Shown here piece by piece: positions 18,699-54,586 of a stretch of 64,000 nucleotides of DNA; position 1 is the first letter of the stretch, and every line of letters begins with the position of its first letter. This stretch comes from Escherichia coli (GTDB lineage: Bacteria; Pseudomonadota; Gammaproteobacteria; Enterobacterales; Enterobacteriaceae). The notes beneath the pieces were generated by a model. It worked only from the letters and a program-made list of their open reading frames with translations, did not search any database and was not told where the DNA came from. Position numbers and translations under genes: made by a program. The stretch is taken from NCBI RefSeq assembly GCF_050920415.1, contig NZ_CP169309.1. One strand, 5' to 3'.

Positions 18699-18785
18699 GC
18701 CCGGATGGTGGAATCGGTAGACACAAGGGATTTAAAATCCCTCGGCGTTCGCGCTGTGCGGGTTCAAGTCCCGCTCCGGGTACCA
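18699..18785 (+). tRNA. leuZ: tRNA-Leu(UAA), intact copy at the prophage left junction
   Basis: 87 nt, GCCCGGATGGTGGAATCGGTAGACACAAGGGATTTAAAATCCC..GGGTACCA, with a long variable arm. Confidence 0.95.
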
Positions 18786-18855
18786 TGGGAAAGATAAGAA
18801 TAAAATCAAAGCAATAAGCAGTGTCGTGAAACCACCTTCGGGTGGTTTTTTTGTA
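18731..18855 (+). repeat. attL: left copy of the 125-bp direct repeat (3' 55 nt of leuZ plus 70 bp downstream including the terminator)
   Basis: Base-for-base identical to 53671-53795 on manual comparison. Identity starts at TTTAAAATCC in the anticodon loop and ends at ..TTTTTTTGTA. Confidence 0.95.
18829..18853 (+). terminator. rho-independent terminator of the glyW-cysT-leuZ operon (inside the att repeat)
   Basis: ACCACC-TTCG-GGTGGT hairpin plus T7. Confidence 0.85.
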
Positions 18856-18868
18856 TTTGTATTTTGTT

Positions 18869-18900
18869 AAATGGCGGTAAAGTGGCGATGGTGTGGCGAT
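18869..18900 (+). promoter_or_regulatory. candidate integrase arm-type binding sites (P' arm)
   Basis: AAATGGCG (18869-76), AGTGGCGAT (18881-89) and GTGGCGAT (18893-900). The same words recur next to int at 53567-53602. Confidence 0.45.
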
Positions 18901-18989
18901 ATGCAGAAATAATGATAGTACACGTCTGTTTAAACTCTAAGGGTGAAGCAAAACTCTCCTGCAACTCATCTGCATTTCGCATATTGAAC

Positions 18990-19103
18990 TAGGGCCTTGG
19001 TTAAACCAAAGTTTTTTCTGGGATCTTCCCACTCAACTTCATTTTTCCTCCTACCATCCACCAAAAGGTGTCTGCGCTACTCTATCTTTTTTAATCTGAC
19101 AAC
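18990..19103 (-). repeat. degenerate second copy of the hok-type leader (no intact toxin ORF downstream)
   Basis: Aligns by eye at roughly 60-65% identity with 19994-20120 (TAGGGCCTYGGTTAAAC .. CCATC .. AAAGG .. CTATC..TTTTTT). The minus-strand mini-ORF beginning MVGG is conserved in both copies. Confidence 0.5.
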
Positions 19104-19325
19104 ATCCTGAGAAAAAGACAAATTCGTTAGATTTACTGTCTTTCTGCTGCCTCGAATGCTGATGTCTGCAGCACTGATAATAACTCTATCTCTTTGATAT
19201 AGATCTTTTTTTTGATGAATTGCACGGCATATTATCGTGATGGCACCTTCTTGTTAAAGGTGTTGTACTCCTCATCTCGATTTTATGATGTGGGCTATGA
19301 TTGGTTAGTAATAGAGTGTATCGGT

Positions 19326-19607
19326 ATGCGATGTGGTTTATTAATGGCAATCTGCCTTTGTTTGGTATCTTTTAGTGGGTATGCAGCAACAGGAAAGTCA
19401 GATGCTCAGATCAAGAAAGAAATAATTAAAGAGTCCATTGAATCTTATCCAGGCAATTGTGCGTGTCCGTATAATCATGCAAGGAATGGTAGTAGATGTG
19501 GTGGACGCAGTGCATATAGCCGTACTGGAGGGTATGACGTGGTATGTTATGAAAGTGATGTTACCGATGAAATGATCCGGCAATGGAAGCAGGAGAATGC
19601 TGAGTAA
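19326..19607 (+). CDS. small secreted Cys-rich protein (moron; unknown function)
   Basis: 93 aa from MRCGLLMAICLCLVSFSGYA (signal peptide). Mature part has CACPYNHARNGSRCGGRSAYSRTGGYDVVCYE. Low GC relative to the phage. Followed by terminator 19681-19712. Confidence 0.65.
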   Translation: MRCGLLMAICLCLVSFSGYAATGKSDAQIKKEIIKESIESYPGNCACPYNHARNGSRCGGRSAYSRTGGYDVVCYESDVTDEMIRQWKQENAE

Positions 19608-19680
19608 TCTCTTTTAACTGATTTGTTGTGCGAGCATAATGTGCAGTTAACGGCTCACTAGCTAGTGAGAGTTCCAAAAA

Positions 19681-19712
19681 GAAACCCCGCAGTTTTTACG
19701 CTGCGGGGTTGT
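19681..19712. terminator. bidirectional rho-independent terminator shared by the Cys-rich gene (+) and the hok-like gene (-)
   Basis: AACCCCGCAG-N8-CTGCGGGGTT hairpin, with a T-run on the minus strand (TCTTTTTGG) and a T-rich tail on the plus strand. Confidence 0.8.
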
Positions 19713-19938
19713 TATTCATGCCTATGAGATAGGGTGCCTTATCGGCCTTACCCTGGCAACCGATTGACGGGGAGTTGCCTCCCCGTCGCGGTTTCCTTAC
19801 TGCTTACACTGTAAGAACGCCGCAAACTCCGCTCCCCAGAAGCTCATCCGTATTTCACACAGCGAACCGTGCAGCATCCAGATGATGAGGATTACCGTCA
19901 CGCAGAACGTGATGGCCGTAAGCGATTTTTGCGACATA
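19696..19938 (-). CDS. Hok/Gef-family membrane toxin homolog with an unusual C-terminal extension (80 codons); not present in the supplied ORF track
   Basis: Hand translation gives MSQKSLTAITFCVTVILIIWMLHGSLCEIRMSFWGAEFAAFLQCKQ, then VRKPRRGGNSPSIGCQGKADKAPYLIGMNNNPAA*. The first 46 aa align with HokA (..WMIRDSLCELHIKQESYELAAFLACKLKE). An AAGGAG SD lies 6 nt upstream and an in-frame TAG 30 nt upstream. I checked that the frame contains no stops. Confidence 0.75.
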
Positions 19939-20126
19939 GCGCTTGCTCCTTTGTTGGAGAGGCGCTAACCTATCACTTGCTAGGTTGACGGGTTAGGGCC
20001 TCGGTTAAACAGAAATGTTTTCCGGGGCCTTTCCACATCCGGCCTTCGGGTATTCCCTCCGACCATCAGCCGAAAGGCACCCGCACGTAATCTATCGCTT
20101 TTTTGTTACTCCGGCAATTCTGCCTG
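19939..20126 (-). promoter_or_regulatory. hok-type mRNA leader (candidate promoter, mok-like mini-ORF, antisense-RNA target region)
   Basis: Minus strand has TTGCCG-N17-TAGATT as a candidate promoter, the mini-ORF MVGGNTRRPDVERPRKTFLFNRGPNPST, and a GGCC(T)CGG..CCG(G)GGCC hairpin followed by TTT on the plus strand (possible Sok-like terminator). Confidence 0.45.
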
Positions 20127-20387
20127 TTAATTCTGAGGTAAAGGCAAACTCATCTGATTGTTTCCCCTGTGTGAAGCTGGCAGCTCATGCCACGGGATAC
20201 CTTCTGAAGAGTGAACGCCGGAGGCGTGTTTTGATGTGAATTTATGGAAAGCTTCCAGTGTTGAGAAGCATACGCCGCATTCCAGATTGTTACACTGGTA
20301 ATACTTTTGCCGCACGGTGTTTGAATCATTTTCCGGACGACTGGTGCGGATACGGGCAGATGCGCCACAAAGCGGACAACGGAACAT
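20127..20387 (-). CDS. ogr: Ogr/Delta-type zinc-finger late transcription activator
   Basis: 86 aa, MFRCPLCGASARIRTSR..YYQCNNLECGVCF, with the same CxxC..CxxxxC layout as P2 Ogr (MFHCPLCQHAAHARTSRY..). Confidence 0.88.
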   Translation of the reverse strand: MFRCPLCGASARIRTSRPENDSNTVRQKYYQCNNLECGVCFSTLEAFHKFTSKHASGVHSSEGIPWHELPASHRGNNQMSLPLPQN

Positions 20388-20429
20388 AGCGACCTCCCTT
20401 AACGTGGTGCTGCCGCTATTCTAAGTTGC

Positions 20430-42694: not shown

Positions 42695-42955
42695 CTATAG
42701 CTTTGATGCAGGCTGGGCTAGATGTAAGGGTTGGACATACCAGCCTTTTGATAACCAACTCTCTGCAACATCTTTACTCCTTGTTATTGCTGGTATTCCG
42801 ATGCCGTTATTTACATGCATCCATGCTACTGGCTCTGCTTCCAGCGATGCCAGTGCAATTTCATAAGCACGGCGTTCAATATTGTCTCGAACGTCCAGGC
42901 TGCCGATGCGCTCTTTGATTTCTTTAATCAGTTCTTTGTCGGTGAACGTTGTCAT
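42695..42955 (-). CDS. hypothetical protein (86 aa)
   Basis: Last ORF of the tightly packed minus-strand operon. No recognisable domain. Confidence 0.55.
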   Translation of the reverse strand: MTTFTDKELIKEIKERIGSLDVRDNIERRAYEIALASLEAEPVAWMHVNNGIGIPAITRSKDVAESWLSKGWYVQPLHLAQPASKL

Positions 42956-44669: not shown

Positions 44670-45629
44670 TTACTCCTTGTCCATTGCGTACAGCCCATTA
44701 ACCAGAGCAAACTGTGGCACCCCGTCCGCGATGAAAGTCGCATTAACTCCGCAGGCTTCGCGGATAGCGGGTGCCACAATCTCCGCCCCGCCACCGACAA
44801 CCATCACCCGCCCGTAACCCGAAAAACCCGCCAGCGCGCGGATCACGCGTTGTTTCAGTGTTTCTTCCTTTTCACGAATAACCGCCATCAGGCTGGCGTA
44901 ATGCGCGTCATTGTGGATGTGCTGGCGCAGCCAGGCTTCATCATGGCGATGTTCAATAATGGTATTGGCGATGTGGTGACTGGTGCGCATACCGTTAGTG
45001 GCCATCACCGACAGCACGGCATCGGCCATCAGTGAAACACCTACGTGTGGATCGCAAAACACCTGGCTGATACCTGCCAGTTGTCCCTGAACCTTTGCCA
45101 CATCCAGCGTGGTTCCGCCCAAATCCACAATCAGCAGGGATTCAAACGGACTCATGTCAGCCAGTGCCTTAAAGCCTGCCGGAATGGATTCAGGCATAAC
45201 CCGCACGTTACGGATAGTGAATGCCTCACCGTTCTGGTACTCCACCGGGCGCATAACGTTCGCTTTTTTGCGGTTGATGTTGGCCATGTCCGGCTGTGCG
45301 TTTGTGTCGAAATACTCGCTCAGTGGCAGGGTGACAACCACATCCACCTCCTGTGGCGTGATGCCTGATTTGACCAGCGCGTGATGAATGGCAATGACAT
45401 TCACATCGCTGTATTGGTATTGCGTGTCGGTCGTCTGGACAAAGCGATCGCTGACCGGATCAAAACCATAGCGCACGCCATCAAGCATGTAGTTCGCGGG
45501 CTGCGTGCCACCGAACGGCGCAGACCATTCCGACTTGAAGCTGTTCGGGCTGATGGCGTTGCGGCGTTCGCCGTTCTCAGTCCATGCCAGCTTGATGTTG
45601 GTGGAGCCGTCGTCGATACAAATTTTCAT
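44670..45629 (-). CDS. parM: ParM/StbA actin-like plasmid segregation ATPase
   Basis: 319 aa, MKICIDDGSTNIKLAW..ISPNSFKSEW..YSDVNVIAIHHAL..VMPESIPAGF..LIVDLGGTTLDV..VMVVGGGAE.., colinear with R1 ParM along its full length. Confidence 0.9.
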   Translation of the reverse strand: MKICIDDGSTNIKLAWTENGERRNAISPNSFKSEWSAPFGGTQPANYMLDGVRYGFDPVSDRFVQTTDTQYQYSDVNVIAIHHALVKSGITPQEVDVVVTLPLSEYFDTNAQPDMANINRKKANVMRPVEYQNGEAFTIRNVRVMPESIPAGFKALADMSPFESLLIVDLGGTTLDVAKVQGQLAGISQVFCDPHVGVSLMADAVLSVMATNGMRTSHHIANTIIEHRHDEAWLRQHIHNDAHYASLMAVIREKEETLKQRVIRALAGFSGYGRVMVVGGGAEIVAPAIREACGVNATFIADGVPQFALVNGLYAMDKE

Positions 45630-45663
45630 GTCGCTTTTCCTTATGTTGATTAATTAATCGTTT

Positions 45664-45683
45664 ACGGGATTCTGAAATCCCGT
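45664..45683. promoter_or_regulatory. dyad ACGGGATT-N4-AATCCCGT upstream of parM (candidate ParR operator / parC element)
   Basis: Perfect 8-bp arms. Part of a ~40-bp direct repeat with 45734-45775. Confidence 0.45.
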
Positions 45684-52562: not shown

Positions 52563-53564
52563 ATGTCGGTTCGTAAGATTCCATCAGGTAAATGGCTTTG
52601 CGAATGTTATCCCTACGGGGCATCGGGAAAACGCATTCGTAAACAGTTTGCGACAAAAAGTGAGGCGCTCTCTTATGAGCGCCGTTTAATGAATAGTAGA
52701 GTTGGAGACGAGTTTCAAGATGGTTCTGGTCCTCGTCTTTCTGAGTTGATTGCTCGTTGGTTTGAGATGTACGGTAAAACCTTGTCCTCTGGTGCAGAGC
52801 GCAAAGTCAAACTTGAGGCGATTTGTTCCAGGCTGGGAGATCCATTTGCTTCTCAGTTTGACAAAAATATGTTTGCTACTTATCGGGAAAGAAGGCTATC
52901 AGGAGAATGGAATCCCAAGGGGAAGAAAAAACTTAGTGAAGCAACCGTTAATCGCGAGCAGTCATATCTACATGCTGTTTTTGCCGAACTGAAGCGCCTT
53001 GGGGAGTGGTCTGGTGAAAACCCCCTGACTGGTATTCGCAAGTTTCGTGAGGAAGAAAAGGAACTGGCGTTTCTGTATGTAGATGAGATTGAACGCCTTC
53101 TGATTGCGTGTGATGAGTCACGGAATAAAGATTTGGGGGTTGTTGTCCGTATTGGGCTTGCGACTGGTGCTCGGTGGAGTGAAGCAGAAGGATTAAAGCA
53201 ATCTCAAGTACTGCCCGGTCGAATCACATTTGTTAAAACTAAAGGAAAGAAGAACCGCACTGTACCGATTTCACCTCAATTGCAGGCTATGCTTCCTAAA
53301 AAACGAGGAGCGCTATTTTCACCATGTTATGAGGCTTTTGACGCTGCAATTAAGAGAGCGAAGATCGAGCTTCCTGATGGGCAATTAACTCATGTGCTAC
53401 GTCACACGTTTGCCAGTCATTTTATGATGCGGGGCGGAAATATTCTTGTGTTGCAAAAAATACTGGGGCATAGCGATATAAAAATGACTATGCGTTATGC
53501 GCATTTTGCTCCAGGTCATTTAGAGGCTGCTGTTGAATTGAACCCTTTTGACAATAGAGGGTAA
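52563..53564 (+). CDS. int: tyrosine integrase (P2-type)
   Basis: 333 aa, ..HVLRHTFASHFMMRGGNILVLQKILGHSDIKMTMRYAHF.. (R..HxxR..Y catalytic box). Confidence 0.92.
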   Translation: MSVRKIPSGKWLCECYPYGASGKRIRKQFATKSEALSYERRLMNSRVGDEFQDGSGPRLSELIARWFEMYGKTLSSGAERKVKLEAICSRLGDPFASQFDKNMFATYRERRLSGEWNPKGKKKLSEATVNREQSYLHAVFAELKRLGEWSGENPLTGIRKFREEEKELAFLYVDEIERLLIACDESRNKDLGVVVRIGLATGARWSEAEGLKQSQVLPGRITFVKTKGKKNRTVPISPQLQAMLPKKRGALFSPCYEAFDAAIKRAKIELPDGQLTHVLRHTFASHFMMRGGNILVLQKILGHSDIKMTMRYAHFAPGHLEAAVELNPFDNRG

Positions 53565-53670: not shown

Positions 53671-53725
53671 TTTAAAATCCCTCGGCGTTCGCGCTGTGCG
53701 GGTTCAAGTCCCGCTCCGGGTACCA
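53671..53725 (+). pseudogene. displaced 3' fragment of leuZ (55 nt, no 5' half)
   Basis: Starts in the anticodon loop (TTTAAAATCCC..) and ends GGGTACCA. Confidence 0.9.
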
Positions 53726-53795
53726 TGGGAAAGATAAGAATAAAATCAAAGCAATAAGCAGTGTCGTGAAACCACCTTCGGGTGGTTTTTTTGTA
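53671..53795 (+). repeat. attR: right copy of the 125-bp direct repeat
   Basis: Identical to 18731-18855. Confidence 0.95.
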
Positions 53796-53920: not shown

Positions 53921-54586
53921 ATGAAAACGGGACCGTTAAACGAAAGTGAGTTGGAATGGCTGGACGATATTCTGACCAAATACAACACTGACCACGCCAT
54001 TCTTGATGTGGCGGAGCTGGACGGTTTATTGACGGCGGTGTTGAGTTCTCCGCAAGAGATTGAACCGGCACAGTGGCTGGTTGCCGTATGGGGTGGGGCT
54101 GACTATGTGCCACGCTGGGCGTCAGAGAAAGAGATGACGCGCTTTATGAACCTGGCTTTTCAGCATATGGCCGATACCGCAGAGCGTCTGAACGAATTCC
54201 CGGAGCAGTTTGAGCCGTTATTCGGCTTGCGAGAAGTCGATGGCAGCGAGCTGACGATTGTTGAGGAGTGGTGCTTTGGCTATATGCGGGGCGTGGCACT
54301 TTCTGACTGGTCAACGTTGCCCGATTCGTTAAAACCGGCGCTGGAGGCGATTGCGCTGCACGGTACTGAGGAAAACTTCGAGCGGGTAGAGAAGATGTCG
54401 CCAGAAGCGTTTGAAGAGAGCGTAGATGCCATTCGACTGGCGGCGCTTGATTTACATGCATACTGGATGGCGCATCCGCAGGAAAAAGCTGTTCAGCAAC
54501 CGATCAAAGCAGAAGAGAAACCGGGTCGTAACGATCCTTGTCCGTGCGGCAGTGGTAAGAAATTTAAGCAGTGCTGCCTGCATTAA
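53921..54586 (+). CDS. yecA: SEC-C motif protein YecA
   Basis: 221 aa from [21 protein letters not shown].. to a C-terminal ..[18 protein letters not shown]. Confidence 0.92.

Follow-up and report, generated by a model that had tools for sequence, protein, structure and literature searches.

The 64,000-nucleotide (nt) stretch of Escherichia coli DNA analysed here (contig NZ_CP169309.1 of assembly GCF_050920415.1; 'the window') carries a small gene of the Hok/Gef toxin family, hok, on its minus strand, within a P2-like prophage. The locus raises the question of whether the toxin has lost its usual stop codon or is of ordinary length, and of how its synthesis might be controlled. A first reading made from the letters of the DNA (the sequence-only reading) had favoured loss of the stop, by which Hok would be 80 residues long and its 34-residue C-terminal tail would run into the terminator, as either an extended variant or a decaying toxin. 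In the analysis described here the gene instead encodes a normal 46-residue membrane toxin of the Hok family that ends at its own TAA without any extension. The locus very probably represents a standard hok/Sok-type type I toxin–antitoxin cassette, present as prophage cargo between ogr and attR.

Length, family and prior record of the hok gene

The minus-strand open reading frame (ORF) beginning at the ATG at 19937-19935, one base away from the position 19938 initially assigned to it, was machine-translated as MSQKSLTAITFCVTVILIIWMLHGSLCEIRMSFWGAEFAAFLQCKQ, and these are exactly the first 46 residues that had been translated by hand. Machine translation of 19937-19696 placed a TAA at codon 47 (19799-19797) and further in-frame stops at codons 72 and 74, and the run of '80 codons, no in-frame stop' was an error of hand translation. 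The ORF listing of the window returned the same 46-residue frame (Table 1), which is shorter than common ORF length thresholds, such as the default of 60 aa used in ORF listing. The TAA at which the longer frame had been thought to end does exist, at 19700-19698 within the terminator hairpin loop, but it lies in frame 1 while hok lies in frame 2.

The position of the stop was also compared with that in related loci. All 19 alleles that were aligned, drawn from various prophages and species, kept the TAA directly after ...QCKQ, and most homologues were 46 amino acids (aa) long. The stop of the relatives therefore sits where it does in the window, contrary to the suggestion that the usual Hok stop had been lost. 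RefSeq annotates the identical DNA as a 141-nt coding sequence (CDS). There was no need to invoke a sequencing error, since the gene has its normal stop and the E. coli genomes that match best carry the locus at 100% identity. What can be said in favour of an extended toxin is indirect, and comes from rare database entries from other genomes that are stop-loss or frameshift versions of the window-type Hok, 59–81 aa in length. In one of these (P0007, 79 aa) the TAA is changed to TAT, and three others (P0013, P0037 and P0038) end ...NNKPAA at the loop TAA; nearly all such long variants form singleton clusters. Direct translation, together with the comparison with relatives, rules out the 34-residue extension in the window, and the probability left to the stop-loss explanation is negligible. 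The variants of 59–81 aa recorded in the databases, which may be decay mutants or assembly errors, were P0002, P0005, P0007, P0011, P0013-P0015, P0017, P0025, P0027, P0030, P0037 and P0038, some of which end at the terminator-loop TAA.

The assignment to the Hok/Gef family held when the protein was searched against Pfam PF01848, with a score of 30.1 bits (gathering cut-off 22; E=3.7e-7) and residues 7-44 aligned on profile positions 5-42 of 42. A stronger match was obtained with PHROG 251 (82.8 bits, E=2.5e-23). A search of 5.8 billion proteins identified 68 relatives, from Escherichia, Shigella, Salmonella and Klebsiella, and across 16 members of the subfamily the residues C27, E28, A36, E37, A39, A40, L42, Q43, C44 and K45 were invariant. 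A hydrophobic stretch at approximately residues 6–22 (read by eye), the (S/D)LCE motif, the E.AA(F/L) region and the second cysteine are all present, and the protein could be aligned to HokA, HokC and HokW. No second hok copy was found in the 64-kb window.

The closest named paralogue is HokA, the product of the K-12 chromosomal hokA/sokA locus, with which the window protein shares 20 identical residues, the QK, WM, SLCE and AAFL.CK motifs and both cysteines. HokA differs in being 50 aa long, and its K-12 copy is disrupted by IS150. HokA also gave the best NCBIfam model (NF007290), but the score of 35.8 bits is far under the equivalog cut-off of 89, and orthology with HokA was rejected; by these scores the protein is HokA-like, not HokA.

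An uninterrupted 46-codon hok ORF was found in 65 of 68 unique alleles, the remaining three comprising two with 47 codons and one cut by a contig end. Pairwise comparison of the window with diverged alleles gave ratios of nonsynonymous to synonymous substitution (dN/dS) of 0.03–0.30, by which measure hok is under purifying selection.

The gene is already annotated and catalogued. A 481-nt region covering the locus matched the best complete E. coli genomes, chiefly of serotype O145:H28, at 100% identity over its full length, and 80 records matched it at >=99%. In O145:H28 the RefSeq CDS, a 'Hok/Gef family protein' (WP_000078920.1), lies directly after ogr at the identical position. P88-like phages of the P2 family carry a copy of approximately 94% identity that is labelled 'MokW-like host killing'. 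The 2026 Hok catalogue of Escalera-Maurer et al. (bioRxiv 10.1101/2025.08.07.668861) lists the exact peptide in its supplement as unique sequence 1628, and its 60%-identity cluster, number 72, is termed there a 'high abundance cluster'. Two representatives of cluster 72 were cloned in that study for arabinose-induced toxicity assays, namely 72_1621 (V16A relative to the window Hok) and 72_1589; 42 of the 45 Hok sequences tested were toxic, and the three named as non-toxic do not include cluster 72. The same study reported that hok is enriched approximately four-fold in prophages. The peptide is therefore identical between the window, cluster 72, WP_000078920.1 and PHROG 251, with no difference at the protein level, and in O145:H28 the CDS and its flanks are identical as well. 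These catalogue sources give no account of RNA elements, of the state of mok or of the P2-like setting, and a search of the literature on hok in P2-like phages returned nothing specific.

The label 'MokW-like host killing' hints at the hokW-sokW system of the Shiga toxin (Stx) phages 933W and Sp5, and identity with that system was considered and rejected. HokW is a 51-aa protein of a HokD-like subfamily with 14/46 identical residues and an in-frame mokW, and its gene lies elsewhere in the 933W genome. The locus in Stx phages that is truly related to the one in the window (83% DNA identity) is a second hok copy, situated downstream of lom. In 933W this second hok-like locus (L091:1512-1674, record ~45511-45673) lies between lom and ST933Wp67 and matched RF01794 at 35.6 bits. 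Like the window gene it is a member of the 46-aa subfamily; it is unannotated in 933W and in many Stx2a phage records, and is distinct from the characterized hokW-sokW, which encodes a 51-aa toxin (PMC8621323).

Predicted RNA elements of the cassette

The cassette of hok/Sok type spans approximately 20117-19676. Positions 1-157 of the Rfam family RF01794 aligned end to end with 20082-19927 on the hok strand (47.3 bits, E=5.9e-9). This family, although named 'sok' antitoxin, is modelled in the hok-sense orientation: it matches the hokC/mokC and hokW strand, and the annotated sokC and sokW lie on the strand opposite the match (K-12 hokC locus, L093:902-1054; 933W). The match therefore marks the hok leader, the 145 nt upstream of the hok CDS, and places the 5′ end of the mRNA near G20082. 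The homology shared by alleles from different contexts runs from about the −35 element to just beyond the 3′ fold-back inhibition (fbi) element. The −10 hexamer (TAGATT/TAGAAT/TAAATT) and the TTG of the −35 are retained even where the upstream flank of an allele is unrelated, and alleles in other contexts end in different terminators.

Folding of the full-length RNA in silico gave a minimum free energy (MFE) of −178.1 kcal/mol (z = −6.56 relative to shuffled sequences). In both the MFE and the centroid folds the 5′ element was joined to the fbi-like element in the 3′ untranslated region (UTR) by 15 pairs (20082-20068 with 19747-19732). The core pairs of this helix (1-7/368-374) were kept in 22 of 22 alleles, five being invariant and two varying on one side, and no covariation was seen in the core. 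Matching changes were observed by eye in its extension, which reads CGGC/GCCG in the window, CGAC/GUCG in L010 and CGAU/AUCG in L009. When the 3′ end was removed, the 5′ element was predicted to refold into a local 5′ hairpin. The hairpin that holds the hok Shine–Dalgarno (SD) sequence was present in both the full-length and the truncated folds. Its pairs (122-153) were kept in nearly all sequences, with one-sided changes only (G-C/G-U, U-G/C-G), and 3 of its 10 pairs were broken in one or two sequences of the 22-allele alignment. An RNAalifold consensus of the 22 alleles, with pairwise identities down to approximately 72%, contained 113 pairs, 12 of which showed two-sided changes. These included the stem-loop just past the stop codon, where compensatory changes were found at pairs 320/329 (6/22 sequences) and 321/328 (4/22).

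An antisense gene, sok, is predicted on the plus strand. The hairpin GGGCCUCGG...CCGGGGCC followed by UUU, at 19995-20032, was recovered as first described (−29.4 kcal/mol, z = −2.87), and its proposed role as a Sok-like terminator agrees with the prediction by homology: K-12 sokC and 933W sokW, mapped via the shared Rfam model, put the Sok 5′ end near 19979-19982. The antisense span originally put at 19940-20035 appears to contain the Sok transcript, at approximately 19979-20035, but to have been merged with the Sok promoter at 19943-19971. The sequence AGGTTA, the complement of the Sok −10, was invariant in 22 of 22 alleles, and adjacent bases varied. In the Sok-target stem, alternative hairpin sequences occur in L077/L081/L007, L003 and L010 with pairing seemingly retained, as judged by eye; RNAalifold called only three partly broken pairs in that part of the stem. 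The promoter of R1 Sok, TTGCGC-N17-TATCCT, occupies the homologous position.

A mechanism of the following kind is proposed. A weak promoter would give an mRNA of approximately 400 nt, the length suggested by folding and homology, in which the 5′ end pairs with the 3′ UTR element (fold-back inhibition) and the SD is held in the conserved hairpin; the full-length transcript would be translationally inert because of these two features. By analogy with R1, slow trimming at the 3′ end would strip the fold-back element, the 5′ end would refold locally, and the trimmed mRNA would become translatable and accessible to Sok. Sok itself would be a short, unstable antisense RNA, made from the conserved plus-strand promoter, that pairs with the leader and triggers decay by RNase III. 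Hok would then be made only once the supply of Sok stops, as on loss of the element, on a block of transcription or possibly on prophage induction.

Several of these features are shared with hok/sok (parB) of plasmid R1, which has a small Hok with the LCE motif and an mRNA of approximately 400 nt with 5′-3′ fold-back pairing, together with alternative local 5′ pairing and an SD-sequestering hairpin (PMC9841398); the window counterparts are predicted. The leader hairpin of R1 also acts as terminator for a short cis-antisense RNA whose promoter lies between that hairpin and the hok SD, an arrangement predicted in the window too. R1 differs in its 52-aa Hok (46 aa in the window) and in being carried by a plasmid instead of a prophage. 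The window locus, for its part, lacks both a start codon at the mok position and an ORF across the hok SD, and its RF01794 score is below threshold.

Table 1. Positions of the hok/Sok-type cassette and its neighbours in the window
Feature	Position	Strand	Description
hok CDS	19797..19937	-	46 codons + TAA stop; ORF list, translation, profile matches, RefSeq CDS
Predicted hok promoter	20089..20117	-	-35 TTGCCG 20117-20112, 17-nt spacer, -10 TAGATT 20094-20089; inferred
Predicted full-length hok mRNA, ~400 nt	19676..20082	-	5′ end from start of Rfam match, 3′ end from intrinsic terminator
5′ element (tac-like)	20068..20082	-	GGGUGCCUUUCGGCU; pairs with 3′ fbi element or local partner
Mini-ORF A, 28 aa	19980..20066	-	MVGGNTRRPDVERPRKTFLFNRGPNPST; ends TAG 19982-19980
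Mini-ORF B, 21 aa	19973..20038	-	MWKGPGKHFCLTEALTRQPSK; ends TGA 19975-19973
Sok-target hairpin in hok leader	19995..20030	-	complement is predicted Sok terminator hairpin
Hypervariable segment	19978..19995	.	11-nt core CCGTCAACCTA at 19991-19981
SD-sequestering hairpin	19939..19965	-	GCGCCUCUCC...GGAGCAAGCGC; holds hok SD AAGGAG 19951-19946
Conserved stem-loop	19766..19787	-	GACGGGGAGGCAACUCCCCGUC; just past hok stop codon
fbi-like element in 3′ UTR	19732..19747	-	GGCCGAUAAGGCACCC; complementary to mRNA 5′ end
Intrinsic terminator	19676..19710	-	10-bp G+C-rich stem, then UUUCUUUUU
Predicted Sok promoter	19943..19971	+	-35 TTGCTC 19943-19948, 17-nt spacer, -10 TAACCT 19966-19971; inferred
Predicted Sok RNA, ~55-60 nt	19979..20035	+	5′ tail, hairpin 19995-20029, UUU 20030-20032; ends uncertain by a few nt
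ogr/Delta-type late transcription activator	20127..20387	-	directly upstream of hok; PF04606 52.4 bits, RefSeq annotation
attR-side copy of 125-bp direct repeat	18731..18855	.	3′ part of tRNA-Leu + 70 nt

The mok frame and the variable block

The apparent lack of a functional mok frame is the only aspect of the locus that is even mildly unusual, and it is common to many relatives. In the window allele no ATG, GTG or TTG was found in the hok-overlapping frame, which is closed by a TAA at 19995-19993. Since no frame with such a start codon crosses the hok ribosome-binding site, R1-style mok coupling would be absent or broken. An in-frame mok of the hokC or hokW type was excluded, as the hok frame is closed by a TAG at 19967-19965, nine codons upstream of the ATG. 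The sequence-only reading had described a mok-like mini-ORF in the leader, and two such mini-ORFs do exist (A and B in Table 1). Both stop short of the hok SD, however, 36–43 nt before the hok ATG, and for that reason neither is a functional mok of the R1 kind.

Mini-ORF A corresponds to the N-terminal part of a 70-codon ORF that overlaps hok and is intact in some alleles, the difference being made by a hypervariable segment that sits at the mok start position of R1 and hokC and at the predicted Sok 5′ tail and its target. The mean divergence of this segment was 39%, compared with 6–9% in the flanking leader and CDS. Among 68 unique alleles the segment fell into length classes of 11, 12 and 13 nt, and it varied in sequence too. 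With 12 nt of one type, as in L068 and L052, the frame of mini-ORF A is open into and past the hok start, giving 70 codons across hok, whereas with the 11 nt of the window it is cut by the TAG. In L077, L081 and L007 the ATG of mini-ORF B is in frame with the hok-overlapping frame. In most other alleles a TAA closes this frame 43 nt ahead of the hok ATG, and in a few the closure falls 7–16 nt ahead of it. By this tally about 44 of the 68 alleles have no through-reading ORF, and a through-reading mok is polymorphic in the subfamily while the hok ORF stays conserved.

A number of points weigh against reading the locus as a standard hok/Sok-type cassette. The RF01794 score is below the gathering threshold of 59 (hokC scores 118 bits and hokW 113 bits), and the only gathering-level Rfam matches in the window were three tRNAs. 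A strict sigma-70 consensus scan of both strands over 19500-20400 returned 0 sites and called neither promoter, and because TTGCCG/TAGATT was not called the hok promoter is rated as weak. The U-tract of the predicted Sok has three U only, and both the sense and the antisense RNA are predictions. What others assayed was not the window allele in its native context but a protein differing from it at one residue, driven by a promoter and SD foreign to the locus, and the chromosomal hok loci studied earlier did not give post-segregational killing. Upstream of the hok ATG the hok-overlapping frame stays open for just 55 nt and lacks a start codon. In R1, Hok can be made only if mok is translated at least as far as the hok SD (PMC9841398).

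The last two points lead to the explanation that the locus is a silenced relic, in which the toxin ORF and the RNA folds are intact but a variable segment 1 nt shorter breaks the 70-codon ORF, no ribosome crosses the SD hairpin and no native Hok is made. In R1, toxicity is abolished when the mok start codon is mutated or when mok ends prematurely upstream of hok (PMC9841398). The window allele has the TAG at the end of mini-ORF A and an overlapping frame with no start codon, and alleles of approximately 98% identity (L068, L065 and L053) carry the 12-nt segment and the intact 70-codon ORF. Such a relic would resemble the hok loci that are inactivated in the chromosome of E. coli K-12, where hokA/mokA/sokA is disrupted by IS150. 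Most related alleles also lack the through-reading ORF, however, and yet 65 of 68 keep the 46-codon ORF, with purifying selection. As a broken mok is common and hok is conserved, a mok-independent subfamily fits these data better than dozens of independent deaths. In addition, the 70-codon ORF may never have been a real mok, because its ATG, 17 nt from the 5′ end, lies inside the fold-back helix with no evident SD. The relic explanation is considered doubtful, and a Hok subfamily that initiates without mok is somewhat more likely than a silent locus, on evidence that is weak.

If initiation does occur without mok, it could be, as a tentative suggestion, that the 46-aa hok loci of cluster 72 are gated only by the SD hairpin, the fold-back and Sok-triggered decay, and that the 11–13-nt block acts as a specificity code insulating co-resident hok/Sok paralogues. 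O145:H28 genomes hold both a window-type copy and a Stx-phage copy, with different variable blocks. A separate matter is what the cassette does for the prophage. It may be a lysis helper or a phage-exclusion module and not an addiction module, with Hok released on induction or superinfection to speed lysis or to abort infection. Such roles are reported in the case of Sp5 hokW-sokW and, against T4, of hok/sok from R1, and the cassette lies in a cargo region by the att site, beside another small phage-family gene. HokW, however, is of a different subfamily, and no link between the cassette and either late transcription or the SOS response was seen in the sequence, the cassette having its own predicted promoter and terminator. 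This role is viewed as rather unlikely; it concerns biology and not molecular mechanism, and is compatible with the hok/Sok cassette explanation.

Beyond its correct annotation the locus is of little importance, being a catalogued, normal-length Hok toxin whose P2-like prophage is common in pathogenic E. coli. What residual interest there is lies in mok, which is mandatory in R1, broken here and variable across a subfamily with a conserved toxin ORF. If such loci are active, the R1 coupling rule would not be family-wide, with consequences for the prediction and annotation of type I toxin–antitoxin loci.

Prophage context

As first noted, hok follows D and ogr and shares their strand. The cassette forms cargo between ogr and attR, approximately 0.8–1.3 kb inside the ogr-proximal end of the prophage. 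The 125-bp direct repeat at attR has a second copy at 53671-53795, with 100% identity over 125 nt, and a tRNA-Leu(taa) gene lies at 18699-18785. When 18780-19700 was used as a query, most E. coli genomes matched only its first 75–77 nt, on the host side of the junction. A 333-aa ORF adjoining the distal repeat (52563-53564, plus strand) looks like an integrase from its N-terminal sequence and position, as judged by eye, and the ORF at 53921-54586 beyond this repeat was taken to be yecA. Because the repeats bracket the element, other genomes match on the host side only and an integrase-like ORF stands at the distal end, the element is a complete P2-like (P88/Xuanwuvirus-like) prophage of approximately 35 kb in the tRNA-Leu gene.

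Between hok and attR there is a convergent 93-aa ORF (19326-19607, plus strand), which matched phrog_27544 (E=1.5e-59), had no NCBIfam match and is 'hypothetical' in RefSeq. It appears to share with hok a bidirectional terminator hairpin at 19683-19710.

The hok locus of E. coli O145:H28 RM12581 (L094, record 2372000-2409400) was 100% identical to that of the window, and the prophages, compared from window position 42896 onward, were 96–97% identical overall, the window prophage being the complete one. In RM12581 only the late genes from portal to ogr/hok are annotated, and beyond portal there is an IS3-family transposase and a type I restriction–modification island.

Many IMG/VR prophage contigs (L015, L020, L023, L024 and others; length 1641) end 3 nt past the hok CDS match, at the stop codon. 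It looks as if their prophage boundaries were set at the last gene call instead of at attR, and such records would therefore miss the hok 3′ UTR and the fbi element.

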